Positions 9,966-38,561 of a stretch of 64,000 bases of DNA are shown here, one piece after another (the first letter of the stretch is position 1; the number at the start of each line of letters is the position of its first letter). Source of the DNA: an uncultured Gammaproteobacteria bacterium (lineage in GTDB: Bacteria; Pseudomonadota; Gammaproteobacteria; JABDGN01); the NCBI GenBank assembly GCA_963975985.1, contig CAXBIY010000003.1, forward strand, positions 129,539-193,538, given 5' to 3'. The position numbers and the translations under genes were made by a program. The notes under the pieces are model-generated. The model saw only the letters and a program-made list of their open reading frames with translations. It was not told where the DNA came from and ran no database searches.

Positions 9966-11351
9966 ATGGGCCCAGTAAGACTTCCTATTAAGGATGCTAT
10001 TGATAAGCATTTGCCTACATTTGCTCAATCTCACCACCCCGCAATAGTAAATGAGCATTTTCTAATTCCTAGCAAACAATGGTTCAGATGGCATCTGCAT
10101 GAATTAGCTTTGTCAGAATGTGATTTGACTACTGAAACACCTACGTTTGAAGAAACACCTGAGATAGGTTCTCGTAGTGAAAAACAATGGACTGACTTCT
10201 TTTCACATTTATTCGCCAGCCAAATATTTTTGCGACAATATAAAGGTGCCTTACCAGACAAAAGCAAACTAAGCGGCAATCCTAACGCTAATCTCCACCA
10301 ATTATTAGAAGCCATTAAACTTGAAGAAACTTACTTAACAAAACCTTTGCCTGGCATTCCTGATGATTGGCCTGCTTATGAAAAGAGAAAACGCGGTAAA
10401 CAAGAGAGAAGCGCTCCTATTATTGAAGAGTTAAGAGCAAACCATTTACTGACTAGCTCACCCTTTCGGCTTATGTTTCAACATCACTTGAGTCAAGCGT
10501 CAGTCATTGCTATTGAAAAAAATACTCGACCTGGTAATCATGACGTGATCTCATTACCTCGCGATCTAGTACAACAACCACCTGGTCATGACGTACTCGA
10601 TGCTGTTAGCGCGCGTAGACAAAAAGAAGCTGATGAAGGAAAAACGCCATACCCTGTGGCACCTGAAAGCTATTTGCCCACAGCACTAGAACAAGACCCA
10701 TTGGTCCACACTCTCAGGCAACAATACATACAACCCACACCACGCTTGCCATTGGTACTAGGTGTCGATAACAAGTACCACCCCGCCTACCGCCGCCATG
10801 ATGTTAGCTTGCTAATGGAATTAGCGCTCTCAAAACCACTCACCTATGAAAGCAAAAAACTTATCATGCTGTGTATAGAGTTAGGCGACCTCAGCGCATT
10901 AATGCTTTATGGCGAATTATTGAAATACCAAACCACTGCTATTCTAACTGTTCTTGATGGCGGTGAAACACTATTGACTTGCCCATGGTATTTAATGCCT
11001 TTATGGCTAAAACTAAACAAGACAGCAAATGCTTCTGCCACAGGAGAAATCGATATACCAGCCATGAAGCAAGAACTACAAACATCTCTCGATCTAACAC
11101 TTGCTATGATTGACAGACACATCGAAACCCAGGCATCTGATAACTATAAAACCTTTCTCAATACGAAGTTTATGCCTAGAATTCATTGGTGGCTTAAATC
11201 GGTTCATCCCAAAAAAGATGACGACAGAAAAAGTAAACTTGGATTCAATGCGGCAATGCCTGATGATGAGCTTTTACGCCAACTCACACCAGAATTTTTA
11301 GATGCATTGCTAGCACGTTTCACATCTAAGGATGGAAAGGTCTACATGTAA
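9966..11351 (+). CDS. Hypothetical protein (461 aa)
   Basis: Long uninterrupted ORF with no signal peptide and no family motifs; follows a MITE. Confidence 0.4.
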   Translation: MGPVRLPIKDAIDKHLPTFAQSHHPAIVNEHFLIPSKQWFRWHLHELALSECDLTTETPTFEETPEIGSRSEKQWTDFFSHLFASQIFLRQYKGALPDKSKLSGNPNANLHQLLEAIKLEETYLTKPLPGIPDDWPAYEKRKRGKQERSAPIIEELRANHLLTSSPFRLMFQHHLSQASVIAIEKNTRPGNHDVISLPRDLVQQPPGHDVLDAVSARRQKEADEGKTPYPVAPESYLPTALEQDPLVHTLRQQYIQPTPRLPLVLGVDNKYHPAYRRHDVSLLMELALSKPLTYESKKLIMLCIELGDLSALMLYGELLKYQTTAILTVLDGGETLLTCPWYLMPLWLKLNKTANASATGEIDIPAMKQELQTSLDLTLAMIDRHIETQASDNYKTFLNTKFMPRIHWWLKSVHPKKDDDRKSKLGFNAAMPDDELLRQLTPEFLDALLARFTSKDGKVYM

Positions 11352-12066: not shown

Positions 12067-12480
12067 TCAACCGAGTATTTTTAAGGTCATGCTCAGAGGG
12101 AAATCTTGTATTTTCCCCCCATTAGTAATCAGCAAGACTTGTGAAACAGTGGTGATTTTACTGACGCTCAAGGTATATTTTAAGATACACGAAGCGTTTG
12201 CGGCTAATTTAGCAGGGCAATTATTAGCAATCGTGGTATCACGAACCAGTGGCGTTATAAAACCGGCAACATCTACCGGTGAAGTGATGGATAAATTATT
12301 TTTGATTAAATATTCGAAGGTATACGTCCTCCCCACATAGCCATCACAACTTAATTGATTCTTGGTTACTGTGCACTCCGCTGGTACTTGATAAAACGAC
12401 ACAACTAAGGGTTCTTTAGCCGCAAATGCAGTCGATAGTACCAATAAATTTAACACAACAACTTTAATAAAACATCGCAT
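12067..12480 (-). CDS. Secreted single-domain protein, paralog of the N-terminal domain of the 736-aa protein
   Basis: Signal peptide ...[10 protein letters not shown]; aligns residue-by-residue with aa 24-135 of the 13992-16202 product (AAKEPLxV..C..YVG..Y..EYL..NNL..TSP....GF.TP.VRD....NNC.A.LAA.A.CILKYT); conserved Cys pair. Confidence 0.5.
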
Positions 12481-12494
12481 TCGGTGTCTCCTAA

Positions 12495-13262
12495 TTAATA
12501 ATGCCCAAAGGTATAAGTAAAGCCGAATAACCAGACATTCGTGGCTAAATGCTGGCCAGGGCCCCTGCCCGTGCTACCGGATGCTGTTTCGGCAGAGCCT
12601 AAATAGGCATCACCTAAATCACTATATTCATAGCCAGTATAAAGTGTCATGAGAGGCGTTACGTGATAATCCAAACCTAAACCCACACGCCATGCAAAAT
12701 TAGCTGTCGTTTTATTAGCATAAACTAAACCTGGCTGCACAATGGGAGCCTTTGGCGTTGCGATATAACCGGAAGCCATGTTTTGACTAAAGCCTAAACC
12801 TGCTGAAATATAAGGCGCTAAACCATGCCATTCGACAATATCGGTTTTCACTGAAGCAAACAATTGCCAACTTTTAATATTGTACTGATAACTGTAATTA
12901 TTGAATTCAGGTAATTGAAATTCTAAGTAGTCATTGCCATTGACATTCGCGTTAGCTTGATTCGCAAAAGTAATGCCCAGGTTTATATAGGGGAACCAGA
13001 AATGTTTCATGCCAATTTGATAGCCTGCACTGAGTTCAGTCTCCAGCACGCCACTGCTAACATGAGCCGCACTGTAGTGATCGGTCTGAAAGCCCGGCAC
13101 AACATTGATATCACCCGCACCCGGCTGTGAGTAATACGCAACACCGACTCCCAGATCAAGATAAAAGCCCGATTGCGGATCAGTCGTGGCATCTGCTGTC
13201 ATAAAACCAATAAGTAACAGCACTAGTGTGCTAAAGCGGACAAGTAAACAACGTTTTTGCAT
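12495..13262 (-). CDS. Outer-membrane beta-barrel (porin-like) protein, paralog B
   Basis: Signal peptide; alternating Gly/Tyr-rich beta-strand pattern; C-terminal 'WLFGFTYTFGHY'; strongly similar to the 16214-17002 product; GGAGA RBS. Confidence 0.55.
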   Translation of the reverse strand: MQKRCLLVRFSTLVLLLIGFMTADATTDPQSGFYLDLGVGVAYYSQPGAGDINVVPGFQTDHYSAAHVSSGVLETELSAGYQIGMKHFWFPYINLGITFANQANANVNGNDYLEFQLPEFNNYSYQYNIKSWQLFASVKTDIVEWHGLAPYISAGLGFSQNMASGYIATPKAPIVQPGLVYANKTTANFAWRVGLGLDYHVTPLMTLYTGYEYSDLGDAYLGSAETASGSTGRGPGQHLATNVWLFGFTYTFGHY

Positions 13263-13350
13263 TAGTATGTCTCCAATACATCGAGCAGGCAATTAACGCG
13301 AACATACCATGGTTAGGCTTAAAAAACTACAGCCCGTACACTCGAGTACC

Positions 13351-13989
13351 TTATCCCAACAACTTTTGTGCAACTGTCAACCAAGCAGGAAAATCCACCG
13401 TGGGATGCCCTTTTCGACTGACAGGAATTGTTAATGGCACCAGCTCTTTCACAATGAATTGTCCTTGCAGCATGTCGGCAAGTTCTAAAAAACTTAGGCT
13501 GCCAGGAATTTTAACGCCAGTTTTGGCTTGCACTAATAAATCGGCATCGCGATCGCAGGTCATGTTAATCCATAAACCGTCATCGACGAGATGCTCATGA
13601 ATCAAACGGGCAAAATGTCGTCGCCCTTCTGCATTTTTAATGGTGTGTGCGCAAGCAATGTCATAGGCGATATCGTACTGCCCTAACTGCTGGTGTTGTT
13701 GCGTAAAGTTTAAGGTTTGAAAATTCACATCGGGGCCGTTAGTTTTCGCTGTGGCAATAGCTGTTGCTGATTCATCACAAGCTAAAATATTTTGGTAACC
13801 TTGTGTGGCCAATGCTTTTGCTTCTACGCCATAACCGCAACCGACTTCCAGTATCTTCGCATCTTTATCGACGATACGCTCGAACAACTGCAACACGGGT
13901 TGATGGGGCTCTGCATGTTTCCACGGTGTGTCGCCTTGCTGGTAATTGTCTTCCCAATCGCGGGTTTGGTTAATAGTTGTATTCATCAT
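13351..13989 (-). CDS. Class I SAM-dependent methyltransferase, TPMT/TehB-like
   Basis: 'W..NYQQGDTPW' TPMT-type N-terminus and 'ILEVGCGYGVEA' SAM motif I. Confidence 0.65.
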   Translation of the reverse strand: MMNTTINQTRDWEDNYQQGDTPWKHAEPHQPVLQLFERIVDKDAKILEVGCGYGVEAKALATQGYQNILACDESATAIATAKTNGPDVNFQTLNFTQQHQQLGQYDIAYDIACAHTIKNAEGRRHFARLIHEHLVDDGLWINMTCDRDADLLVQAKTGVKIPGSLSFLELADMLQGQFIVKELVPLTIPVSRKGHPTVDFPAWLTVAQKLLG

Positions 13990-13991
13990 AT

Positions 13992-16202
13992 TTAAGGTAA
14001 CTCTGAAATCGCTAAACCTTGTGTCGTGTAAATAGCATTTGTAGAAGCGCTACTATAAAGAAAACCATCGCTTGCCCATAGACCTGACGTCCTATTCCCA
14101 ATATTAGAATTACTGCCAGTGTAAACCAGCATTGAAGTAATTTTCCCATCACTGCCTAACGTGCAAACAGCAAATCCTACTTGACTAAATCCAACATACA
14201 AGTAGTCACCTGCTTGTGTCAAACTAGTTATCCCAACGTTATTATAAGGCAGAGCAAATGGTGTTTCAGAAGTAACCGTATCAGTATAAAACAACCATGT
14301 TGAATCAGGTAAATCATCGGCGCCCAAGTGTACCAGACCCAACCCTTTTTCAGTACCCACATACAAATAGTTGCCTATCCGAATCGCTCCATTAACATCA
14401 TAAGCGCTGACCGCTGATGGCCAACCAGTTGTTGTATTATCATATTTTGTCCAATCCTGAGTTACTGCACCCGTATCACTAATCGTGGCTGCATAAAAAC
14501 CCTTATCCCGTGTACCGACATACCACGCATTCCCGGTAATATAATTCACATAAGAATCAATCGAAGCATCAGCTGGAAAATTGAAATCACCGGTGGAGCC
14601 TGAGTTAGCATATAGATTCCAAGATGCATTAACCAAGCCTGTGCCTGAATCAACTGTGGCTGTATTAGCACCACCACCACCATTCCAGGCCTTAGTAATC
14701 GCGATATAATTATTATGTCGCACGACAGTGGTAACTTTCACACCGCTCAATATATTAAAACCACCCGTTGAAGTACCAGCACTATTTGTATATTTACTCC
14801 ACGTTGTTGGCACACCTTCAATCAACGACGTTGTATTAACACCAGCGTCATTTGCGACATATAAATGATCAGACTCATCAATGGTAACACCCTTCACAGA
14901 AGCTGAATTTAAATCACCACCAGTAGTGTCGTAAGTCGTCCAATCACTAGTGACTTCACTAGTTGTCGCATCAACCGGGGCAACAGCTAAACCTGAGTTA
15001 CTCGTTCCCACATACAAATAATCACCATGGCGAGCAACTGTAGTCACAGAAGTATTATTGTCACCTGGTAGCGGATGTGTTCCGTCACCATTTTCGTATA
15101 AGAATTTTTGCAAATCGCTATTAATCACATTAAACTCAGGTTCTACCGTAATAACATCGTTACCATCAACCTCCACACTTGCAGATACAGTTTGACTACC
15201 TGCCGTGCAATCACCTGATGTGCACTGAAACTGCAAACGCAAGTTACAAGTTGCCTCAGATGCCAAACTTCCTGAGGTTGAACAATCACCCGTTTCACCT
15301 GTTTGTTGCGATAACGCTGTCGCGGCAGAAACCGTATAACTCACCGCATCATCACTTGTATTCTGCATTTGATATAGCACTGTTACAGGTGCTGAATCAC
15401 CAGAAATTTGCTGAACGTGTGTCGCCCATCCACCACTCGGTGCCGTAGGTTCTATTGTTAAGGCCAATGGTGAGCTAGTATCAATAGCTTCCAAATCAAT
15501 ATTTTGTGAAAGCGCTTCATCACCGTCTTTCGTAACATCTAAACTCGTTGAAATGGCACCAACTTCAGTTGGTTGATACTGCAAGATTATCGTGCAAGCA
15601 CTACCCGCAGCTAATGAACCATCACAATCATTTTGCGAAATAGTCAAGCCATGTTCTTCACTGCTCAATGATGCTGAGACAATAGCCGCTGAGCCACCAT
15701 CATTGCTAACGGTATACGTAAATTCGTTATCCGTACCCACCTCTACGGTATCGGGCAAAGTTGGTGAGTCCAAAAAACTCAAAGCAGAAGGTGATTGCGA
15801 AAGTGTCATAGTCAGAGGAAATTGCTGCACTCTACCACTGTTACTGATATGCAAAATCTGACTCACGTTTCGTGCACTAGAAGACGTCACTGTATATTTG
15901 AGTATACACTCAGCACCTGCTGCTAATGTTGCTTGACAATTATTAACCACGTTGACATCACGCACCATAGGCGTTGAAAAACCGCTAATCTTAATAGGTG
16001 ATGTTGTAGGCAAATTATTGTGAACCAAATATTCAATGCTATATTCATTACCGACTGTACCGCTACAAGTTGCATTTGCACCACTGGTTGTGCAAGTTGT
16101 TGGTAGGCTTTGATACGTCACTTGCAGGGGCTCTTTCGCTGCAAAGGCGGATGTTGTGACAAACATGCTTAAGATAACCAAGCTATAAAATAAACGTTGC
16201 AT
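13992..16202 (-). CDS. Secreted multidomain protein: three Cys-pair Ig-like/beta-sandwich domains followed by a 7-bladed Reg_prop-like beta-propeller
   Basis: Signal peptide MQRLFYSLVILSMFVTTSAFA; three ~100-aa units with motif C...L.AG..C.(I/L).(Y/F); C-terminal half has 7 repeats of '(D/N)YLYVGT..GL.......W..Y(T/D)' like two-component-regulator propeller repeats; ATG at 16202 with AAGGAGA RBS. Confidence 0.55.
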   Translation of the reverse strand: MQRLFYSLVILSMFVTTSAFAAKEPLQVTYQSLPTTCTTSGANATCSGTVGNEYSIEYLVHNNLPTTSPIKISGFSTPMVRDVNVVNNCQATLAAGAECILKYTVTSSSARNVSQILHISNSGRVQQFPLTMTLSQSPSALSFLDSPTLPDTVEVGTDNEFTYTVSNDGGSAAIVSASLSSEEHGLTISQNDCDGSLAAGSACTIILQYQPTEVGAISTSLDVTKDGDEALSQNIDLEAIDTSSPLALTIEPTAPSGGWATHVQQISGDSAPVTVLYQMQNTSDDAVSYTVSAATALSQQTGETGDCSTSGSLASEATCNLRLQFQCTSGDCTAGSQTVSASVEVDGNDVITVEPEFNVINSDLQKFLYENGDGTHPLPGDNNTSVTTVARHGDYLYVGTSNSGLAVAPVDATTSEVTSDWTTYDTTGGDLNSASVKGVTIDESDHLYVANDAGVNTTSLIEGVPTTWSKYTNSAGTSTGGFNILSGVKVTTVVRHNNYIAITKAWNGGGGANTATVDSGTGLVNASWNLYANSGSTGDFNFPADASIDSYVNYITGNAWYVGTRDKGFYAATISDTGAVTQDWTKYDNTTTGWPSAVSAYDVNGAIRIGNYLYVGTEKGLGLVHLGADDLPDSTWLFYTDTVTSETPFALPYNNVGITSLTQAGDYLYVGFSQVGFAVCTLGSDGKITSMLVYTGSNSNIGNRTSGLWASDGFLYSSASTNAIYTTQGLAISELP

Positions 16203-16213
16203 CGACAATCTCC

Positions 16214-17002
16214 TTATTGACCGTGATTAAAATGTTCATGACCAAGCAAATAACTAAACCCAAACAACCATGTGTTAGTAGCTAAATTAGCTTGCCCAGG
16301 GCCTCTACCCGTTTGCCCACTATCAGTAGCGGCACTATCTAAGTAGGCATTACCCAAACCGGAATATTGATAACCAGCATAAACGGTAAACACTTTATTA
16401 ACATGATAATCTAGCCCCAGACCTAAGCGCCATGCAAAATTAGTCGTTGTGTTATTACCATAGGCTAAACCAGGTTGTACGACAGGTGCTTTAGGTGTTG
16501 AAGCATATCCATTAGCCGTGTTTTGATCAACACCTATACCTGCTTCAACATAAGGTGACAATCCATGCCAGTCAACAATATCGGCTTTCACATTCGCAAA
16601 TAATTGCCAAGTGCTTATGCTGTATTGATAACTGTAATTATTAAAATCTGATGATTGAAATTCAAGATAATCATGCCCTTTAACTGTGGCGCTCAATTGT
16701 TGTGAGTAAAGTAATCCAGCTTGAATCAGAGGAAACCAAAACCGTTTTGTGGCCATTTGATAGCCTGTACCCAGCTGATAATTAAATACACCATGGTTTA
16801 CTTTACCCGCACCAAATGCATCGGTTTCAAAATCTGGCACAACATCGACATTGCCTGCTGCCGGGTTCGCATAAAAAGCTTGGCCAGCACCAAAATCGAC
16901 ATAAATGCCTGATACGTTTTGCTGTGCGGCGTTGGCCATAGTTAATGATGATAATAAGCTGGTTAATAAAAATAAACGTGCAAAAAAATGACGCCCGTGC
17001 AT
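16214..17002 (-). CDS. Outer-membrane beta-barrel (porin-like) protein, paralog A
   Basis: Signal peptide MHGRHFFARLFLLTSLLSSLTMANA; long near-identical blocks with paralog B ('YLEFQ...FNNYSYQY...WQLFA.VK.DIV.WHGL.PY..AG.G..QN.A.GY..TPKAP.VQPGL.Y.N.TT.NFAWR.GLGLDYHV'); AGGAGA RBS. Confidence 0.55.
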   Translation of the reverse strand: MHGRHFFARLFLLTSLLSSLTMANAAQQNVSGIYVDFGAGQAFYANPAAGNVDVVPDFETDAFGAGKVNHGVFNYQLGTGYQMATKRFWFPLIQAGLLYSQQLSATVKGHDYLEFQSSDFNNYSYQYSISTWQLFANVKADIVDWHGLSPYVEAGIGVDQNTANGYASTPKAPVVQPGLAYGNNTTTNFAWRLGLGLDYHVNKVFTVYAGYQYSGLGNAYLDSAATDSGQTGRGPGQANLATNTWLFGFSYLLGHEHFNHGQ

Positions 17003-17069
17003 AGCATGTCTCCTTGAGGTTGAGCCGGCAGAAACATACCATGTTTGCACTTAAAAAACTATACGACAT

Positions 17070-22607: not shown

Positions 22608-23474
22608 ATGTCAATCGTGAGAATTGTAATAGCGTTTTTTGCACTATTAAGCTTAACTGCCTGTGTACATCATTTATCAGAATCAGAATGTTTACACACT
22701 AACTGGCAAACTGTCGGTGAGCAAGATGGCACGCAAGGTAAACCCAAGAAAGATTTCTCCGGCTACATTGCTGATTGCGCAAAATACAATTTGACGATTA
22801 ACACACAATCTTATAATCAAGGTTATGCACAGGGTATCAAAGAATACTGTACCCCAACACAGGCATTAGGTTTGCAAGCCGGTCAAGGTGGCGCTCCCGT
22901 TGCCGAGATTCAAGCACGTGAAACAGCTTGTGCTGCCGTACATTTATCACTTAGCTTAAAAGATTTTGATATCGGTTATAACAAAGGCATCACGCAATAT
23001 TGCACTAAAGCTCAAGGGCAGCAAGATGCTATTGCCGGCAAAATCGCCAGCCTTGCTTGTGCAACTAAACATATAACGGCTTATACAGACGGATATAATG
23101 CCGGTGCAGCTCAAGCTTGTAGCAATGTATCAACCGCAACTGAATTAGGTAAAGCCGGCAACGCCTACCCTAATGAATGTGATGTGAGCAAATTTCCACT
23201 ATTTAAAAAAGCTTATGACCACGGCGTTGTCTTGAAGCAAAACATTGATAACATCCAAAATCAATTGGATCAAGTTAACTCTGGCGTTAGCAACATGGAA
23301 AATCAATATCACTTCACACTTTCTCCCAATGGTGGCGTCAATTATGACTCTGGAAAATATCCTTCTGGCGAGACGACAGGAAGCATGCTCAGTTTGATGG
23401 CACAATACCAAGACCTACGTACCCAACAAACTGCTTTACAAAATAAACTTAAAGTAGCGCAAGCTGCGACTTAA
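22608..23474 (+). CDS. Lipoprotein with three internal 'GY..G...YC' repeats (DUF2799-like N-terminus)
   Basis: Lipobox LSLTAC; 'C...NW...G..DG..G' motif followed by three ~50-aa Cys-containing repeats; predicted TTGACT-N16-GATAAT promoter upstream. Confidence 0.45.
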   Translation: MSIVRIVIAFFALLSLTACVHHLSESECLHTNWQTVGEQDGTQGKPKKDFSGYIADCAKYNLTINTQSYNQGYAQGIKEYCTPTQALGLQAGQGGAPVAEIQARETACAAVHLSLSLKDFDIGYNKGITQYCTKAQGQQDAIAGKIASLACATKHITAYTDGYNAGAAQACSNVSTATELGKAGNAYPNECDVSKFPLFKKAYDHGVVLKQNIDNIQNQLDQVNSGVSNMENQYHFTLSPNGGVNYDSGKYPSGETTGSMLSLMAQYQDLRTQQTALQNKLKVAQAAT

Positions 23475-23490
23475 ACTAGGAGAGTTAAAC

Positions 23491-24531
23491 ATGAAAAAAC
23501 TCACAAGTATTTTAATTTTATGTGCCAGCTTAATCATGCTGCCATTTGTCAGCAATGCCGCCCCTCAACCCGTCACGGGCGATACGGGGATGCCAACAAT
23601 TGCGGTCTTGAACTTCACTATCACACATCAAGTAATGCAGATGTATTATCAAAATGTAGAATACAAGGACATGCATGGAAAAAAGAAGCATGGCCAACAC
23701 GGTACTCGTTACAATGAAAGCAACACGGCTAAATACAAACAAGAGTATGATGAAGCTACTAGCTCGATGACTAACAGCATCACGAACTATTTAGTGCAAA
23801 GCCATAAATTCAATGTGGTCGAGCGCAATAAAGTTCAACAAGTGGCTGACGAATTAAATTTTAACGACTCGCAATATGTGTCACCACAAAATGCCGTTAA
23901 AATTGGTCACATGCTTGGCGCTGATTATTTAGTGATGGGTAGCATCGAAAACATTGATGTGCGCCATGAGAAAGACAGCAACCCTTACATGCAAGATGGT
24001 GAGTTAATGTACCACGGTGCGTTAGCCATCAATGTGCAAGTTGTCGATACTAAGAGCGGACAAATCGTTGCTTCATATCCTGTTCAAGTGCAAAAGAAAC
24101 TGTATCCACACAGCGATAAGATTATGAATAAGTCATTGTTCTTGAATCAGCTAAAAGATAAAGCAGCACAACAAGCCACTAACGATATATTACAAGCCAT
24201 CTTCCCGCTGCAAATTATGCAAGTGCAGGGTAAGCAAGTATTTATCAATCGCGGCACAGGTGCTGACTTTAAAGTTGGCAGCATCATGACGGTTTATAAA
24301 ACGGGCAAAGCCTTAGTTGACCCTGACACAGGCAATAGCCTTGGTGTCACTAAAAGCAAAATTGGCACAGTGAAAATCACACAAATCCAAACTAAATATT
24401 CTACCGCTTCAATTTTGACGGGCGATGCAACGCAGATGCAAGGTGCAGTGGTTGAGTTAACGGATAAAAACCCTGATACCAATAAACAACCCATGTCACC
24501 AGGCTCTAGCCCTAAACCGATTCAATGGTAA
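23491..24531 (+). CDS. CsgG/LpoB-fold family lipoprotein with extra C-terminal beta-rich domain
   Basis: 'KFNVVERNKVQQVADELNF...IGHMLGADYLVMGSIENI' matches the CsgG-family core; signal peptide. Confidence 0.5.
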   Translation: MKKLTSILILCASLIMLPFVSNAAPQPVTGDTGMPTIAVLNFTITHQVMQMYYQNVEYKDMHGKKKHGQHGTRYNESNTAKYKQEYDEATSSMTNSITNYLVQSHKFNVVERNKVQQVADELNFNDSQYVSPQNAVKIGHMLGADYLVMGSIENIDVRHEKDSNPYMQDGELMYHGALAINVQVVDTKSGQIVASYPVQVQKKLYPHSDKIMNKSLFLNQLKDKAAQQATNDILQAIFPLQIMQVQGKQVFINRGTGADFKVGSIMTVYKTGKALVDPDTGNSLGVTKSKIGTVKITQIQTKYSTASILTGDATQMQGAVVELTDKNPDTNKQPMSPGSSPKPIQW

Positions 24532-24534
24532 TCC

Positions 24535-25938
24535 ATGTTGAAACAGTTATCGCTTAATCTATTGTCCATCCTGCTAGTGTCTTTACTAGCAGGTTGTTCG
24601 ATGTCGAGCACCTTTAATGCTTACCCCAATCAAGCAAAACCCATGCGCGCGGATATTGCGAAAGGCAAGTTCCAAGATGCGGCTGATCGGGTTAAATCTA
24701 AAACTGATACGAATGATAAAATCTTATACCTAATGGAATACGGTCGGATTGAACAACTTGCAGGCAATTTCACGCAAAGCCGCGACATCTACACGCAAGC
24801 CATTGCTAATGTCGATGCGCTGCAACAAAAAGCTAAAATTACTGCAACAGGTATGTTTGACCAAAGCGCTGCCCTGCTAGTCAACGACAATGCTATTCCT
24901 TACCAGGGCTACCCTTATGAATATATTTTACTACATCAATACCAAGCGCTGAACTATGTTGCTTTAGGTGATGTGTCTGGTGCATTAGTTGAAGTGCGCC
25001 GTGCTGATGAAGAGCAAAGCTATACGCAGCAGCTGAATCAAAAGACCTTAGCCGCAGCTGACGCAAAAGCCAAAAAAGAATCCATTAACAACAACGTTGA
25101 CTTCAACCAAAAACAATTCCAACAAATGAATGCTGCAGCCGCTGCTGTTAAAAATCAATATTTAGATGCTTACAGTTATTATTTTGGTGGCCTGATGTTT
25201 GAAGCAACAGGCAGTAGTAATAATGCTTATGTCGCGTACAAACAAGCCTTGTCGATTTCACCTAGCAACCCTTATCTGCAACAAAATGTTTTACGCTTGG
25301 GCAAACAATTAAGCATGCCGGATTTTACGCGTTACCAAAAAACTTATCCGCAAACGATTATTAACCCTAAACCGAACCAAGGTAAAATTGCCATCATTTT
25401 TGAGCAAGGCTTTATTCCGTTGCGTAAAGCATTCAATTTACCACTACCCATTAATGGTTCTGGCATTGTGCCCATATCCATGCCCTACTATGCTGACCGA
25501 CACTTCCCAACACCTGCATTGCTAGTGAGCCAAGGTAAAGAGACGCTTGGCAAAACATCGGCTATTTTGAATTTACAAAACTTATCGGCCCGAGCCTTGA
25601 AAGATGAGTATCCGGTATTGGTCGTGCGAGCTATTTTACGCTTTGCCGCCAAAGCCACCATGGAACACTCCGCACAAAAGAATGCCGGCGATGTAGGCGG
25701 CATTGTTGCCAACCTTTACACTGTTTTTAGTAGTGGTGCGGATTTGAGAACTTGGTCTACCCTGCCTAATGATGTACAAATCATGCAAGCTTACGTAAAT
25801 GCAGGTGAACAATCGCTCACTTTGTCATATAATGGCAAGCGACAGACCATGCCCGTTAAAGTCACTAAAGGCCAAACGGTGCTAGTTTGGGTGGTGGCTT
25901 ATCCAACCCGTTTGGCAACCAATGTTTTTCCACTATAA
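24535..25938 (+). CDS. Lipoprotein, TPR-like helical (uncharacterised, CsgG-associated type)
   Basis: Lipobox LLAGC; helical repeats; 4-nt gap from the upstream gene. Confidence 0.4.
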   Translation: MLKQLSLNLLSILLVSLLAGCSMSSTFNAYPNQAKPMRADIAKGKFQDAADRVKSKTDTNDKILYLMEYGRIEQLAGNFTQSRDIYTQAIANVDALQQKAKITATGMFDQSAALLVNDNAIPYQGYPYEYILLHQYQALNYVALGDVSGALVEVRRADEEQSYTQQLNQKTLAAADAKAKKESINNNVDFNQKQFQQMNAAAAAVKNQYLDAYSYYFGGLMFEATGSSNNAYVAYKQALSISPSNPYLQQNVLRLGKQLSMPDFTRYQKTYPQTIINPKPNQGKIAIIFEQGFIPLRKAFNLPLPINGSGIVPISMPYYADRHFPTPALLVSQGKETLGKTSAILNLQNLSARALKDEYPVLVVRAILRFAAKATMEHSAQKNAGDVGGIVANLYTVFSSGADLRTWSTLPNDVQIMQAYVNAGEQSLTLSYNGKRQTMPVKVTKGQTVLVWVVAYPTRLATNVFPL

Positions 25939-25947
25939 GGACTGATA

Positions 25948-26337
25948 ATGAAACTGAAATCACTATTATTAACTCTCATGACTATCATACTCGGCAGCTT
26001 TCTGTTGAGCAGCTGTGGTTGTAGCTATTCAGAAGCCAGCATGCCATTAGGGCAAACCGTTGCAAAAATCAATGAAAAAGCTGACTTCACTACCATTACC
26101 GAATTGCGTAGCCGTGAAATTGGCAATGTCCTCAACGCCAGTGCTAGCATCAAAAGCAACAGCGTCGACAACAAAATGCTAAGTTACCGCTTCACATGGT
26201 TCGACAAAGATGGCTTCCAAGTTGGTACACCCGGCCCCTGGACACCGATTTCACTCACCGCTGGTTCTAACACGCAAGTACAAGGTACTGCACCTAACCC
26301 CAGCGCCAAAACTTTTAAACTTAATGTTTGTGCATAG
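25948..26337 (+). CDS. ycfL: YcfL-like lipoprotein (DUF1425)
   Basis: Lipobox LLSSCG; 'YRFTWFDKDGFQV' matches the E. coli YcfL 'YRFYWYDAQG' core; lies directly upstream of lpoB as in E. coli. Confidence 0.6.
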   Translation: MKLKSLLLTLMTIILGSFLLSSCGCSYSEASMPLGQTVAKINEKADFTTITELRSREIGNVLNASASIKSNSVDNKMLSYRFTWFDKDGFQVGTPGPWTPISLTAGSNTQVQGTAPNPSAKTFKLNVCA

Positions 26338-26348
26338 GAGACAACACA

Positions 26349-26927
26349 ATGAAAATCTTTAAAACCCTAACCGCTATCGTGTTTGCTAGTAGCTTGCTTG
26401 TCGCTTGCTCTGGTGGCGTACAATACACAGATCCCGGCGCAGTAGACACAACAGGCTTAGGCTTTGGCTCTACTGACTTACAAACAACCGTGCAAACAAT
26501 GGTGTCAGGTTTATTAACCTTCCCACCGGTTGTGCAGTTAACCAGTAAAGAGCGTCCCATATTATTTGTTGCCGGTGTTAAAAACACGACTAACCAACAA
26601 ATCAATACCGATATGATTAACAACATGATGATGACGCAATTGATTCAATCAGGTAAATTCCGCTTCACCGATATGTCTGTAGTGAAAAAAATGCGTGATC
26701 AGTTAAACTATCAGAGCGACAGCGGTAATGTTGATCCACAAAGTGTTATTAAAATCGGCCAACAAGTCGGTGCTCAATACATGCTATACGGTAGCGTAAG
26801 TGCAATTGAAAAATCTGGCGATGGCAAAACATCCATGTACTTCCTAGTCAGCATGCGTTTAATGAATATTAAAACGGGTATTGTTGAATGGGCGGATCAA
26901 AAACAGATTCGTAAAGTTCAAAGTTAG
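26349..26927 (+). CDS. lpoB: Penicillin-binding protein activator LpoB (copy 1)
   Basis: Lipobox LVACSG; 'SGKFRFTDMSVVKKMRDQLNYQSDSGNVDPQSVIKIGQQVGAQYMLYGSVSA' parallels E. coli LpoB 'NGKFTLVSAQQLSMAKQQLGLSPQDSLGTRSKAIGIARNVGAHYVLYSSASG'. Confidence 0.7.
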   Translation: MKIFKTLTAIVFASSLLVACSGGVQYTDPGAVDTTGLGFGSTDLQTTVQTMVSGLLTFPPVVQLTSKERPILFVAGVKNTTNQQINTDMINNMMMTQLIQSGKFRFTDMSVVKKMRDQLNYQSDSGNVDPQSVIKIGQQVGAQYMLYGSVSAIEKSGDGKTSMYFLVSMRLMNIKTGIVEWADQKQIRKVQS

Positions 26928-26972
26928 TATTAATTCCTTCTCCGTTTGCCGAAGAAGGAATATAATTGAAAT

Positions 26973-27082
26973 GTAGGGTGGATAAAAATTCGTGCGAAGC
27001 ACTGAACTATCCACCAGCGGTCTATCATCAAGCACTGCTGGTGGATATGTCCGGCTTTCAGCCGAACTTTTATCCACCCTAC
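26973..27082. repeat. MITE-like palindromic element (copy 3) between the two lpoB paralogs
   Basis: 110 bp with both TIRs intact; it creates a spurious in-frame N-terminal extension of the next ORF. Confidence 0.7.
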
Positions 27083-27115
27083 TTAGTTGTGAGCATTAAT
27101 TCTAGAGGTTCGATC

Positions 27116-27712
27116 ATGAAATCATTAAAACTATTACTCATCATCCTAACAAGCGCTATCCTAATCAGTGCGTGCTCCAGCAACACCCGCTATACTGACC
27201 CTGGTGCAGTCGATACCACCAGTACTGACTTCAGCTCAACTGACTTACAAACCACCACGAAGAAAATGGTGTCAGGTTTATTAACCTTCCCACCCATTGT
27301 GAAACTCACAGCAAAAGAGCGCCCAATTCTATTTGTCGACCAAATCCAAAACAACACTGATGAACACATTGACACCAATAACTTAAGTAATATGGTGATG
27401 ACCGAACTCACACAGTCTGGCAAATTTCGCTTCGTTGATATGTCGCAAGTAAAAGCGGTACACAACCAACTGAGCTATCAACGTGACAGTGGTTTAGTCG
27501 ATCAAAAAACAGCCATAAAAGTCGGCCACCAACTCGGCGCACAGTTCATGCTATACGGTAGCATCAGCAACATCGTGCAGCGTAACAGCTCACAAAAATC
27601 CGTTTACTTTTTAATTACTATGAAACTATTGAACCTGCAGACCGGCATCGTCGAATGGGCCGATCAAAAGCAGATTCGGAAAGTGCAGAAGCGGGCTACA
27701 TTTGGCTGGTAA
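27116..27712 (+). CDS. lpoB: Penicillin-binding protein activator LpoB (copy 2, tandem paralog)
   Basis: Lipobox LISACSS; collinear with copy 1 along its whole length; AGAGG RBS at the true start 27116. Confidence 0.7.
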   Translation: MKSLKLLLIILTSAILISACSSNTRYTDPGAVDTTSTDFSSTDLQTTTKKMVSGLLTFPPIVKLTAKERPILFVDQIQNNTDEHIDTNNLSNMVMTELTQSGKFRFVDMSQVKAVHNQLSYQRDSGLVDQKTAIKVGHQLGAQFMLYGSISNIVQRNSSQKSVYFLITMKLLNLQTGIVEWADQKQIRKVQKRATFGW

Positions 27713-36584: not shown

Positions 36585-38561
36585 ATGATACGGAAACTAT
36601 TGCTGACCACTGTATGTATTGCGCTTGTATTTAATGCTAATGCAGCAAAGATGGTTAGAGTCTGGCAACCCGTGAAGCAAAGTAATCTTTTGCAATTATT
36701 TTCTGTTGAAAACTCAGCTCAACTTACCAATGCACTTCCTCAATCTGATCTACTGCCAAGCACGAACCTGAATAACGACTATAGTTTGCGATTAGTTGCA
36801 GCGTCCCCTGCTAAATTAACAGCCTCTTATGCGCGTTATAATATGTTCTATAAGGGTATACTCGTTTGGGGCTTCCAGATTATTTATCATGTCCCCGTTG
36901 AAGCCAAGCACATCAATCCATTTATAACAGGCTCCTATCTTGCCGATTTAGATCAAGACATAAAAACGATCACCCCAACAATCACTAAACAAAAAGCGAT
37001 CTTAATCGCAAAAGCAATGTTTGCTGATAATGTTGCACAACATACTACTGGTTGGAAGCAGCAATACTCTCACCAGCAACTTATCATTTACACACCTCAT
37101 GTTAACCCCAACGAGCAAACCACTCAGGACGTGCAACCCGCATTAGCTTACAGGTTAGTCCTTTCTGCTTATCGCCCGGGTGACTCTGAGTATTACCCTG
37201 ATAGTGAACAATATACTTATGTTATCAATGCGCTGACCGGAGCTGTCATCACCAGCTATTCTTCCTTGCAAACCTTTGCAGAAAATAAACATTTACAAAA
37301 GCGCTCAATGATTACAAGCAAAAATGAGCCTCACGTAACACACACCTCGGTTTCCAGCCCTATGGCGACTCAGGTGACAGGTTCAGGGCCTGGCGGTAAT
37401 TCAAAGGCGGTCCCCGACATGACAAACGCCATGTGGTATGGTGCCGGAACGCCTACTTATACCCCGCTCAACATACCGAATGCCATTAGCTTTCATCAAG
37501 GCAGCCCTGGCATTTGCTACGCTGAACGCGTGTCAGCGCCGGCTTATCGCGTACTAAGAGTGGGAGATACAAAATTACCAGAATGGTATAGCGACAATAT
37601 TAGTACTGAGATTCTCACTAATCAACCTAATTATGCGACACCTGAAGATGCTTGCGACAGCGATAACGCTTATCAAAATAACTTAGACCAGGTGACCATT
37701 GGATCTGACACCACTTTTTCCCCCGTCAATGATGTCGAATTTGGTGCACAAATGACTTATAACTTAATCAAAGCGATTACCTTACCTGATGTGACCGTCG
37801 CACCGTTTGCGAATAAACAAGTAGTGATACTGACCCATATCTATAACACAGACAATGCTTTTGCTGTTCCTGCTTCTAGTGACTCGCCACAGCAATTACA
37901 TTTTGGTAATGGCATCTCACCACCAAATGGTCGATTTATTGTCTTGACGTCACTGGATGTTGTCGCTCATGAGATTGGACATCTAATACTGGATAACAAT
38001 GGTGCTCCTCTCACTTATGCCAATCAAAGTGGTGGTATCAACGAATCATTTGCTGACATGACAGCTAAAGTCGTACAGTCTTATGTTAGCACTCAAAGTG
38101 ATGACGCTTATCAATTTAACCCTGCACAACCTGACCCCTTTTGGACGGTTGGTAAAAATATTGAACAAAGCGCGAATACCGCCTTACGTTATATGTATGA
38201 TCCCCCGCTTGACCAAAGTTCAGGTGGAAAATCAATTCAGAATGCAAATAATTATACGCCTGGCTTAGACGTACATTATTCATCAGGAGTATACAACAAA
38301 GCTTTTTATGTCTTGTCCACTAGTTCGGGTTGGTCAATACAAAAAGCCTATACGGTCTTTCTTTATGCTGATGTTAAATATTGGCGTAATAGTCCAGATC
38401 AAACGTTTGGTACCGCCTGTATTGGTGCAATATCAGCAGCCTACATGCTATATGGCGCAACAGCACAAGCAAAAGTACTCTCGGTTTTAGAAGGTGTGGG
38501 TATCAAATGTAAACTGCCACATCAGTTTAAAGAAACGCTAGCACGGGACGCGCATCAATGA
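36585..38561 (+). CDS. Secreted M4 (thermolysin-like) zinc metalloprotease
   Basis: Signal peptide; 'VVAHEIGHLI' HEXXH and downstream 'GGINESFADM' third-ligand motif; TATAAT and AAGGAGAG upstream. Confidence 0.75.
   Translation: MIRKLLLTTVCIALVFNANAAKMVRVWQPVKQSNLLQLFSVENSAQLTNALPQSDLLPSTNLNNDYSLRLVAASPAKLTASYARYNMFYKGILVWGFQIIYHVPVEAKHINPFITGSYLADLDQDIKTITPTITKQKAILIAKAMFADNVAQHTTGWKQQYSHQQLIIYTPHVNPNEQTTQDVQPALAYRLVLSAYRPGDSEYYPDSEQYTYVINALTGAVITSYSSLQTFAENKHLQKRSMITSKNEPHVTHTSVSSPMATQVTGSGPGGNSKAVPDMTNAMWYGAGTPTYTPLNIPNAISFHQGSPGICYAERVSAPAYRVLRVGDTKLPEWYSDNISTEILTNQPNYATPEDACDSDNAYQNNLDQVTIGSDTTFSPVNDVEFGAQMTYNLIKAITLPDVTVAPFANKQVVILTHIYNTDNAFAVPASSDSPQQLHFGNGISPPNGRFIVLTSLDVVAHEIGHLILDNNGAPLTYANQSGGINESFADMTAKVVQSYVSTQSDDAYQFNPAQPDPFWTVGKNIEQSANTALRYMYDPPLDQSSGGKSIQNANNYTPGLDVHYSSGVYNKAFYVLSTSSGWSIQKAYTVFLYADVKYWRNSPDQTFGTACIGAISAAYMLYGATAQAKVLSVLEGVGIKCKLPHQFKETLARDAHQ

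Follow-up and report, generated by a model that had tools for sequence, protein, structure and literature searches.

A small outer-membrane barrel gene paired with a gene for an exported protein with Ig-like domains and a predicted beta-propeller

What does a freely exported propeller protein do next to an outer-membrane barrel? The question is raised by a 736-aa open reading frame in the stretch of DNA analyzed here (64,000 nucleotides, referred to below as the window). The original prediction described this frame as a secreted protein with three Cys-pair Ig-like domains and a Reg_prop-type seven-bladed propeller, encoded with a porin partner and probably acting as a surface receptor or adhesin. 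It proposed profile searches for ASH and Y_Y_Y, structure prediction, and a check for a C-terminal sorting signal, all of which were run.

Results

The gene and its exported product

The reading frame proved real at positions 13992 to 16202, where it lies on the minus strand; the same coordinates read on the plus strand gave stop codons only and were rejected. It begins 11 nt past the end of a barrel gene (OMP1), it is preceded by a Shine-Dalgarno (SD) sequence, and its product is identical to a protein in the public collection (P0001). The features of this gene, called the target below, are as follows.

16202..13992, minus strand: target coding sequence, 736 aa plus stop, with the ATG at 16202 and the stop at 13994-13992
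16210..16215, minus strand: AAGGAG Shine-Dalgarno, read from the sequence; it overlaps the stop codon of OMP1 and lies 7 nt ahead of the target ATG
16140..16202, minus strand: Sec (SPase I type) signal peptide, residues 1-21, with AFA/AKE cleavage and without a lipobox, read from the translation; a 137-aa paralogue shares the AFA/AKEPL junction
15798..16139, minus strand: Ig-like domain 1, residues 22-135, Cys pairs C37/C46 and C89/C99, with 50% identity to the 137-aa paralogue (E 2e-43)
15468..15797, minus strand: Ig-like domain 2, residues 136-245, ASH/choice-of-anchor-D type (PF15780), Cys pair C193/C203
15129..15467, minus strand: Ig-like domain 3, residues 246-358, Cys C307/C319 and C327/C332, collinear with the last Ig domain of the homologue P0020
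15066..15128, minus strand: linker, residues 359-379, a short predicted helix (AlphaFold secondary structure), 31% identical to P0020
14091..15065, minus strand: six predicted beta-propeller blades, residues 380-704, ~53 aa each (repeat statistics, P0020 blade HMM, AlphaFold, and Foldseek)
13995..14090, minus strand: C-terminal 32 residues (705-736, ending ...QGLAISELP), without repeat similarity, pLDDT <50

The signal peptide (MQRLFYSLVILSMFVTTSAFA, followed by AKE) has no lipobox Cys. On this basis, the target is an exported non-lipoprotein, in line with the claim that it is secreted. The mature protein has 715 aa, a pI of 4.08, 24.6% T+S, and 3.1% K+R. Its acidity and low K+R content, its paired cysteines, and the lack of any further hydrophobic segment along the protein beyond the signal peptide fit a location outside the cytoplasm.

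No recognizable sorting signal was found at the C terminus by Pfam, NCBIfam, or tail composition. The last 60 residues are without a hydrophobic or basic tail, and neither Pfam nor NCBIfam gave a match to a sorting anchor (PEP-CTERM, T9SS CTD, LPXTG, or GlyGly-CTERM), including the T9SS CTD of type A or type B (Por_Secre_tail). To our knowledge, a T9SS is not expected in a proteobacterium. The end of the propeller is the end of the protein: Pfam gave 0 matches to Y_Y_Y, HisKA, and HATPase in the target, and no catalytic family was matched in Pfam or NCBIfam. A terminal Y..QG..LP is common to the target and P0020.

The GC content is flat across the target region (0.40-0.46), and promoter and terminator consensus scans did not rise above shuffles. 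With tblastn, 50,697 phage records gave 0 matches, and a phage origin was rejected. Nor is an origin from a plasmid or island supported, as the GC content is flat and the sole plasmid match was to a generic choice-of-anchor-D domain.

Three Ig-like units precede the repeat domain

Of the three Cys-pair Ig-like domains that had been predicted, all three units are real, but the strict signature as originally written fits unit 1 alone. A looser signature, C..L(A)..C.[IL]..[YF], occurs in three copies, at C89, C193, and C307, compared to a shuffle mean of 0.001. Similarity was significant between units 1 and 2 (z = 6.2) and between units 2 and 3 (z = 6.8) and not significant between units 1 and 3. 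The clearest family match was found in domain 2, where the ASH profile (PF15780) scored 35.2 bits at residues 152-227, above its gathering score of 27. When the N-terminal half of the target was searched alone, PF15780 reached 38.4 bits over two stretches. The choice_anch_D model (NF012200) gave 36.8 bits on the target, under its cutoff of 45. Matches in the other two domains were sub-threshold (Ig_CFAP74_1st in domain 1, E 0.0019; weak midcut_by_XrtH and fn3_5 matches in domain 3), and BLASTP showed domain 3 to be collinear with residues 470-585 of P0020. Distant database relatives of the full-length target were all choice-of-anchor-D proteins. Ig domains of the choice-of-anchor-D/ASH kind are typical of extracellular or surface proteins.

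A predicted propeller with six clear blades

The blade motif of the repeat domain consists of V..i, g.YLYVGT, GL.v, and W..Y in succession. Seven repeats of DYLYVGT..GL followed by W..Y had been claimed; six of these are statistically solid, whereas the seventh was not detected. YLYVG occurs three times (395, 612, and 667), with degenerate versions at 446, 499, and 560, and W..Y occurs five times (421, 468, 528, 584, and 636), the sixth unit having LVY instead. Pairwise Smith-Waterman z scores among units 1 to 6 were as high as 11, and when one half of the repeat domain was compared with the other half, the score was reached by 0 of 300 shuffles. An HMM made from the P0020 blades alone found exactly six units in the target. 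When the propellers of the target and P0020 were compared, conservation was highest in blade 5 and in the TGWP loop that joins it to blade 4. The proposed seventh unit (residues 705-736) showed no similarity to the other units by repeat statistics or by the P0020 blade HMM and was of low confidence in the structural model.

An AlphaFold model from a two-sequence alignment predicted, with moderate confidence, a propeller of six four-stranded sheets (pTM 0.63, mean pLDDT 58.5). A model of the whole protein from a single sequence was discarded (pLDDT 38.6). Foldseek with the propeller model gave 430 matches at E<=1e-3 and, among the matches listed, all were beta-propellers. The top matches were to BT4663 (4A2L/4A2M; E 7e-8), and BT4673 (3OTT) was also matched. 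BamB propellers were among the best matches (E 3e-7, TMq 0.44-0.47), and lactonase-like seven-bladed propellers were matched as well (4qrj). A blade profile searched against the PDB likewise found 4a2l_A (BT4663) as its best match (E 0.0015). The repeats, the model, and Foldseek agree on a predicted beta-propeller in which six blades are clear and a seventh is possible; the earlier claim holds as to the fold, but its seventh blade is unproven. Residues 705-736 may be a divergent seventh blade or a closure segment, and the linker could supply the closing strand of the propeller.

The repeats fall outside the Pfam repeat models

The label "Reg_prop-type" did not survive the family test. PF07494 gave no match for the full protein (E<=0.01), its C-terminal half (E<=10), or P0020 (E<=1) and none for the tandem blade consensus or for 11 single blades; BT4663 is the closest solved relative only. 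The nearest Pfam repeat was LVIVD (PF08309), at residues 389-407 (..GDYLYVGTSNSGLAV), with 18.0-18.6 bits against a cutoff of 20.2. Two of the 11 single blades matched LVIVD, below threshold. The tandem blade consensus raised the LVIVD score to 44.9 bits, which was rejected because it was inflated by repetition; obviously spurious families also matched. The similarity to LVIVD is confined to the strand-turn-strand core, and the target blades are ~53 aa long compared to the 42 positions of the LVIVD model. The target propeller represents a new repeat family; among solved structures, it lies nearest to the Reg_prop propellers with which Bacteroides hybrid two-component sensors sense glycans. As a two-member family outside every Pfam repeat model, it offers a data point on the kinship of Reg_prop- and LVIVD-like propellers.

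The barrel partner and a second gene pair

The genes and elements around the target are as follows.

17033..17061, minus strand: 29-nt element TAGTTTTTTAAG-N5-AACATGGTATGTT before OMP1, conserved
16214..17002, minus strand: OMP1, outer-membrane beta-barrel of 262 aa with signal peptide MHGRHFFARLFLLTSLLSSLTMANA (PF13505 OMP_b-brl, 53.3 bits versus a gathering score of 28.7)
13351..13989, minus strand: 212-aa SAM-dependent methyltransferase, whose gene begins 2 nt past the stop of the target (Pfam TPMT and Methyltransf_25)
13301..13329, minus strand: second copy of the 29-nt element, before OMP2, matching the first copy
12495..13262, minus strand: OMP2, 255 aa, OMP1 paralogue (PF13505, 52.2 bits)
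12067..12480, minus strand: exported protein of 137 aa in which the signal peptide is followed by a copy of Ig domain 1 and nothing else, with its own SD and a start 14 nt past the OMP2 stop

OMP2 and the 137-aa protein form a second pair in the same window, 700 bp downstream of the target pair. OMP1 is 57% identical to OMP2 (E 7e-110), and this divergence is of a similar degree to that of the Ig partners, at 50% identity. The 137-aa protein itself had a weak choice_anch_D match. With the barrel encoded upstream of P0020 (the L004 barrel), OMP1 shares 25% identity (E 3e-13); the L004 barrel itself matched PF13505 with 43.8 bits (gathering score, 28.7). The 29-nt element occurs in exactly two copies in the window, one per barrel gene, and in 0 of 100 shuffles; its letters suggest a candidate extended -10 promoter (TGgTATGTT). 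The methyltransferase is probably co-transcribed with the target. It was rejected as a member of the module, since P0020 has no such gene at its side and is followed by an MFS transporter gene.

OMP1, OMP2, and the L004 barrel each have a signal peptide. In keeping with the terminal aromatic beta-signal of such barrels, the C-terminal residue is F in the L004 barrel and Y in OMP2; OMP1 has a 9-residue His-rich extension past its last strand. In the barrel alignment, eight amphipathic strands were counted, a number inferred from sequence, along with four long loops; as read, the loops point outward and the periplasmic turns are very short. Weak matches were found to Rick_Adr and Surface_Ag_2 for OMP1 and to the Opacity, OmpA_membrane, PagL, and Adr families for the partner barrels. 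OMP_b-brl, Opacity, OmpA_membrane, PagL, and Adr are all families of eight-stranded barrels. The partner had no match to Porin_1, Porin_4, or OprD-type families, and its mature form has ~240 aa compared to ~330-400 aa and 16-18 strands for a general porin. "Porin" was therefore an over-call, and the partner most likely belongs to the small OmpA/Opa/OmpX-like barrels (PF13505), with eight strands and four long loops. It resembles the OmpA-TM, OmpX, Opa, and Rickettsia Adr barrels in matching PF13505 above threshold, in its alternating strand pattern, and in its four long loops. For none of these barrel families do we know of a described pairing with an exported Ig protein encoded downstream.

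The pairing recurs in a single distant homologue

P0020 was the sole propeller homologue found in an exhaustive phmmer search of 1.84 billion cluster representatives, which stand for ~15 billion public proteins. It has the same order of signal peptide, Ig repeats, and propeller as the target, and its gene starts 9 nt past the end of a homologous barrel gene, with the same stop-SD-ATG arrangement, which is also found at the OMP2/137-aa junction. Otherwise the P0020 neighborhood, with an MFS transporter and riboflavin genes, is unrelated. In all three pairs (3 out of 3), drawn from two genomes, a barrel gene comes first and the gene for an Ig protein follows after 9-14 nt. The barrel family has a fourth member (L005), which lacks an Ig-protein neighbor. 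As had been claimed, the target is encoded with an outer-membrane partner: its genetic coupling to a barrel (PF13505) is real and is kept in its only homologue.

Because it did not resemble the domain with which P0020 begins, Ig domain 1 was rejected as a universally conserved docking domain. A common docking domain is undefined because Ig domain 1 was co-duplicated with the barrel but is not recognizably kept in P0020.

Further searches returned little. A word-index search of 5.8 billion clusters with the barrel found the in-genome paralogue only, and nothing scored when a two-propeller profile was run against this word-indexed 5.8-billion collection. Negatives from it are weak since the index missed both the 137-aa paralogue and P0020, and the propeller census was taken from the exhaustive phmmer run only. 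The target had no match among GTDB species representatives, and the propeller alignment had none in JGI metagenomes. The neighboring ABC-F protein had 25-29% matches only among GTDB species representatives, in unrelated phyla. RNase E scored 886 bits to PRK10811, giving the host a gammaproteobacterial look. In our best reading, the module is confined to a gammaproteobacterium-like marine lineage that has rarely been sampled. A Legionella ProA-like metalloprotease is also encoded in the window. The nearest histidine kinase is located ~36 kb from the target, with no adjacent two-component genes.

Discussion

We favor, with the chances about evenly divided, the reading that the target represents the larger of two copies of a lineage-restricted envelope module of two genes, in which a barrel and an Ig-stalk/propeller protein act as a pair in adhesion or as a receptor. 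The small barrel and the exported soluble protein would be translated from one transcript. The Ig domains would serve as a spacer or stalk and the propeller as a ligand-binding head, perhaps for carbohydrate, a ligand type extrapolated from a very distant resemblance. The Ig-propeller protein would work with its cognate barrel, most likely through non-covalent docking at the cell envelope, as an adhesin or receptor. The target may reasonably be taken for a surface receptor or adhesin, as originally proposed. However, it could also be periplasmic because no outer-membrane secretion route is evident and an eight-stranded barrel cannot pass a folded 75-kDa protein.

A soluble periplasmic scaffold or binding protein like TolB or BamB is the somewhat unlikely alternative that follows from this point. 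The link to the barrel would then reflect shared envelope function, co-regulation, or binding at the periplasmic face, with no surface display. The target has a Sec signal only, with no recognizable signal for outer-membrane translocation or sorting; as a small eight-stranded outer-membrane barrel, OMP1 would be unable to export it; and BamB propellers were among the best Foldseek matches. These points are opposed by the ASH/choice-of-anchor-D Ig domains, which are typical of extracellular or surface proteins, by the extreme acidity, low Lys/Arg, and Thr/Ser richness, which fit secreted proteins, and by the barrel itself, whose long loops face outward and whose periplasmic turns are very short. 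Furthermore, BamB and TolB have no Ig stalks, and BamB is a lipoprotein. A position outside the cell altogether, with the barrel functionally unrelated, appears quite unlikely to us. The target would in this case be a freely released exoprotein, for example, a T2SS substrate that binds polysaccharide or matrix, or a propeller enzyme. ProA is a classic T2SS cargo and the window encodes a ProA-like metalloprotease, lactonase-like seven-bladed propellers (4qrj) were among the fold matches, and one barrel family member occurs without an Ig partner. Secreted propeller adhesins are also known in gammaproteobacteria (Bap1/RbmC, PMC10102183). However, no catalytic family was matched, and the barrel-then-Ig order was found in 3 of 3 pairs, across two very divergent genomes and an in-genome duplication. 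Its recurrence in all three pairs, with gaps of 9-14 nt, would be difficult to account for if the genes were not functionally coupled.

The resemblance to Bacteroides sensors raises another possibility, that the target is a true but highly diverged Reg_prop member, i.e., a sensor ectodomain minus its kinase, which might signal via a separately encoded partner. In the PDB, BT4663 was matched best both with the sequence profile and by fold, BT4673 was also a fold match, and the blade motif g.YLYVGT..GL resembles what we take to be the Reg_prop core. We nevertheless consider this very improbable: no search with PF07494 gave a match, and the Pfam repeat that comes nearest is LVIVD. The target has a single propeller, compared to two in HTCS sensors, and it is without Y_Y_Y, a transmembrane helix, or a kinase. 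Two-component genes are not adjacent, the nearest histidine kinase being ~36 kb off.

The consequences differ with the reading. If the barrel anchors or partners the target, two genes would give a Gram-negative cell a simple means of displaying a binding module that needs neither a lipid anchor nor a C-terminal sorting tag nor an autotransporter. If the pairing means co-regulation only, the target would be an ordinary lineage-specific surface or periplasmic protein, valuable mainly for the annotation of an under-sampled marine lineage. A more far-reaching version of the envelope module, which we think unlikely, is an undescribed modular surface-display pair, which the small barrel would form with the Cys-pair Ig protein in a proteobacterium without T9SS-type sorting. 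Docking would be non-covalent, the 137-aa paralogue would be the minimal version with the propeller as an optional head, and the propeller would be the founder of a new repeat family that links the Reg_prop type to the LVIVD type.

Several known systems share parts of this design. Choice-of-anchor D (NF012200), ASH (PF15780), and HYDIN/VesB-like surface proteins have the Cys...L.AG..C signature and Ig-like domains that are also found in the target, but choice-of-anchor-D proteins usually have a C-terminal anchor (PEP-CTERM, T9SS CTD, LPXTG, or GlyGly-CTERM) and the target has none. The Reg_prop sensors BT4663 (PDB 4A2L/4A2M) and BT4673 (PDB 3OTT) have a similar repeat core (hydrophobic-Y/W-I/V-G-T..GL), and, in a further likeness to the target, the Bacteroides Reg_prop sensors are ligand-binding propellers outside the cytoplasm. 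Unlike these sensors, the target has one propeller rather than two; it lacks Y_Y_Y, a membrane helix, and kinase and regulator domains; and it has three N-terminal Ig domains and an outer-membrane barrel partner. In addition, the hosts of the sensors are Bacteroidetes, whereas the target host looks gammaproteobacterial.

Bap1 and RbmC are free secreted propeller adhesins that bind polysaccharide in the gammaproteobacterium Vibrio cholerae (PMC10102183). Like the target, they are Sec-exported, non-anchored, and gammaproteobacterial; their propeller binds polysaccharide while other modules face the environment. However, they belong to a different propeller family, have beta-prism/lectin modules in place of an ASH Ig stalk, and have no barrel partner, and none of the searches revealed a sequence relationship to the target. 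For the proposed anchoring on a barrel, the nearest precedent is that of PorP/SprF-like systems, where secreted cargo with a type-B CTD is held on an adjacent cognate outer-membrane barrel (PMC9143113). A good example of this is T9SS cargo such as PG1035-PorP and SprB-SprF, in which, as with the target, the gene for the secreted protein lies beside that for its cognate barrel, and the barrel keeps the cargo on the surface non-covalently (PMC9143113). The target pair differs in that its barrel is of the OMP_b-brl type rather than PorP/SprF and the target has no CTD, and docking here is a proposal. If it is true, the logic would be comparable to the PorP-type anchoring of T9SS cargo, in another phylum and with another barrel.

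An exported, very acidic protein with three Ig-like units

The 736-aa protein under study is exported, very acidic, and cysteine paired, and it combines a stalk of Ig units with a propeller as the head. Its reading frame was found at 13992 to 16202, as originally predicted, on the minus strand (stop codon 13994-13992), the plus strand of this interval containing many stop codons. The candidate starts are TTG at 16208 and ATG at 16202. The ATG is the likely start because an AAGGAG Shine-Dalgarno sequence, which shares bases with the upstream gene's stop codon, sits 7 nt before it and because an identical 736-aa protein (P0001), encoded on a 323-kb contig, exists in a public collection (NCBI, ENA, Logan, and Tara sources). 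The N terminus, MQRLFYSLVILSMFVTTSAFA followed by AKE, is a classical Sec signal peptide without a lipobox cysteine, and the protein has no second hydrophobic segment (the top 19-residue Kyte-Doolittle window beyond the signal peptide is 1.16) and carries no kind of sorting tag. The mature protein has 715 aa, a pI of 4.08, and 24.6% Thr+Ser, with just 3.1% Lys+Arg.

The three Cys-pair Ig-like units that had been proposed were confirmed. A loose version of the proposed signature, C...L.AG..C.(I/L).(Y/F), occurs in all three (C89, C193, and C307; mean of 0.001 in shuffles), whereas the strict form fits unit 1 only. Units 1 and 2 (z = 6.2) and units 2 and 3 (z = 6.8) are significantly similar, and the Pfam ASH profile (PF15780), one of the checks suggested at the outset, matched unit 2 at 35.2 bits compared to a gathering score of 27. 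The HYDIN_VesB_CFA65-like_Ig and NCBIfam choice_anch_D models scored slightly under their cutoffs, and units 1 and 3 gave weak Ig-type matches and nothing stronger. The distant full-length matches were all choice-of-anchor-D proteins, with 17 to 38% query coverage.

The C-terminal domain is a propeller resembling Reg_prop sensors

Several lines of evidence make the assignment of the C-terminal domain as a propeller well supported. First, residues 380 to 704 consist of six repeats of ∼53 residues each, with pairwise Smith-Waterman scores of up to z = 11, and the score of one half-domain against the other was reached by 0 of 300 shuffles. Second, a blade HMM built solely from the repeats of the homologue P0020 (see below) picked out exactly six units (392-431, 445-479, 514-535, 557-596, 609-649, and 657-691). 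Third, AlphaFold2 gave a model of moderate confidence. The full-length sequence alone was of no use as input (pLDDT 38.6), but a two-sequence alignment limited to the C-terminal domains (pLDDT 58.5, pTM 0.63) yielded six four-stranded sheets of regular form, followed by a tail of low confidence. Finally, Foldseek returned 430 PDB matches to this model at E ≤ 1e-3, beta-propellers throughout among the matches listed. Six of the seven blades originally predicted were thus borne out, whereas the last 32 residues, taken as the seventh, showed no detectable similarity to the other repeats by repeat comparison or the blade HMM. A seventh blade formed by this C-terminal tail, perhaps with the N-terminal linker, is possible.

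The description of the propeller as "Reg_prop-type" held only as a resemblance. The best Foldseek match was the Bacteroides Reg_prop sensor BT4663 (E = 7e-8), with BamB, lactonase-like, and WD40 propellers and BT4673 ranking behind it, and an 11-blade profile against PDB sequences concurred, BT4663 being its sole match with E < 0.01 (E = 0.0015). However, Pfam Reg_prop matched neither the whole protein, its C-terminal half (E ≤ 10), the homologue, any of 11 single blades, nor an artificial blade consensus, and Y_Y_Y, also proposed for checking, was likewise not found in the protein. The nearest Pfam repeat was LVIVD (18 to 18.6 bits compared to a cutoff of 20.2). We conclude that, among solved structures, the nearest relatives of this propeller are the Reg_prop sensors but that family membership is not demonstrable.

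The propeller is also rare. When residues 354 to 736 were run exhaustively with phmmer against 1.84 billion cluster representatives, P0020 (957 aa, 29% identity, E = 2.6e-20) was the single relative recovered apart from the query. P0020 is built to the same design: a signal peptide comes first, then Cys-pair Ig units in larger number, then this propeller. The two proteins align collinearly over the stretch between Ig unit 3 and the C terminus; blade 5 is the most conserved (42% identity, compared to 17 to 25% for the other blades). Scans of GTDB representatives, JGI metagenomes, and a word-indexed collection (with a profile of the two propellers) found no further members. The word-indexed negatives are weak for this Thr/Ser-rich protein because the search missed P0020 and a 137-aa in-genome paralogue (50% identity); with a two-sequence profile, even the query was not returned.

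A small outer-membrane barrel precedes the gene, and the module is duplicated

The product of the upstream gene, OMP1 (17002 to 16214, minus), is 262 aa long and has a signal peptide and an OMP_b-brl match (PF13505, 53 bits). Because the target gene starts so soon after OMP1, translation of both from a single transcript is almost certain. OMP1 had been called a porin, a label that did not survive: the mature protein is only ∼240 aa, and its family matches OMP_b-brl, Opacity, OmpA_membrane, PagL, and Adr, which are eight-stranded families. A three-barrel alignment, read by eye and not a structure, likewise shows eight amphipathic strands, four loops of 20 to 25 residues, and very short turns. 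Judged on these sequence features, OMP1 is not what is usually meant by a porin.

After the target, the gene order is a methyltransferase, a second barrel, and a 137-aa protein. The features of this region, of which the second module was absent from the original prediction, are as follows.

12067-13329, minus: second, smaller module copy (29-nt element, OMP2, and 137-aa protein)
13351-13994, minus: TPMT-like SAM methyltransferase, starting 2 nt past the target stop (TAA-AT-ATG)
17033-17061 and 13301-13329, minus: 29-nt element, TAGTTTTTTAAG-N5-A[AC]CATGGTATGTT, including TGgTATGTT

OMP2 (13262 to 12495, minus) is 57% identical to OMP1, and the exported 137-aa protein (12480 to 12067, minus), which begins 14 nt after it, is a copy of the target signal peptide and Ig unit 1 only (50% identity, E = 2e-43). 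The 29-nt element has two matches in the window, one located 30 to 38 nt upstream of the start codon of each barrel gene, and none in shuffles; possible identities are an extended -10 promoter and an operator brought along by the duplication. The methyltransferase, cytoplasmic by sequence, sits between the two modules and is not conserved beside P0020.

The P0020 gene, on an 8-kb ENA metagenome contig, follows a homologous barrel gene (25% identity to OMP1, E = 3e-13) after a gap of 9 nt that again contains a Shine-Dalgarno sequence; its other neighbors, riboflavin genes and an MFS transporter, are unlike those in the window. The tight barrel-then-Ig-protein order is therefore seen in three pairs (OMP1/target, OMP2/137-aa protein, and metagenome barrel/P0020). 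A fourth barrel-family member (247 aa, common motif EFNNYSYQY; JGI contig Ga0214917_10001505, region 4166-6747) has no Ig/propeller gene downstream, so the family is not strictly tied to an Ig partner. This barrel adjoins a divergently oriented 600-aa ORF ending in IGVYF, which has the appearance of a large outer-membrane protein.

Genomic context

The neighborhood consists of ordinary chromosomal genes (QueH, MurB, LD-carboxypeptidase, ABC-F, RNase E, RecQ, and photolyase), GC content is flat over the region, no phage homology was found, and no Rfam family reached threshold across the 64 kb. RNase E reached 886 bits with the enterobacterial-type model, and a 658-aa protein (36585 to 38561, plus) partly resembles ProA, a Legionella zinc metalloprotease (135 bits, far under the equivalog cutoff). 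Together these suggest a gammaproteobacterial host, and the ProA-like protein is a hint of a secretome of Legionellales-like or related type. When two proteins were used for peptide-pattern scans, no close relatives turned up among 185,579 GTDB species representatives, and the local proteins are mostly singleton 90% clusters. For example, a 461-aa ORF (9966 to 11351, plus) is a singleton in a 15-billion-protein collection and has no Pfam or NCBIfam match. An envelope gene run at 22608 to 27712 (plus) encodes DUF2799, CsgG-like (346 aa), DUF1425 (YcfL-like), and LpoB-like proteins and a 467-aa ORF that also lacks Pfam and NCBIfam matches.

Proposed function and comparison with known systems

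The original prediction was largely right in observation and right in part in interpretation, and a surface receptor or adhesin is a reasonable proposal. The propeller would serve as a binding head and the Ig units as a spacer, and the protein would work with its barrel, most plausibly docked onto it. Precedents exist for both aspects: neighboring PorP/SprF-type barrels hold T9SS type-B cargo (PMC9143113), and in Vibrio the adhesins Bap1 and RbmC, secreted in free form, bind exopolysaccharide through their propeller (PMC10102183). A weakness of the docking proposal is that Ig unit 1 was co-duplicated with the barrel in the window yet is not recognizably conserved in P0020. A periplasmic location is a serious rival because no path through the outer membrane is apparent for the protein.

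Reg_prop sensors carry a second propeller, a Y_Y_Y domain, a membrane helix, and a kinase, all four of which the target lacks. Its general design, an envelope-located Ig stalk and propeller, is a familiar one. What appears uncommon is a propeller repeat family of two detected members outside all Pfam models, on a protein without a sorting tag, in a conserved and duplicated pairing with a small barrel.
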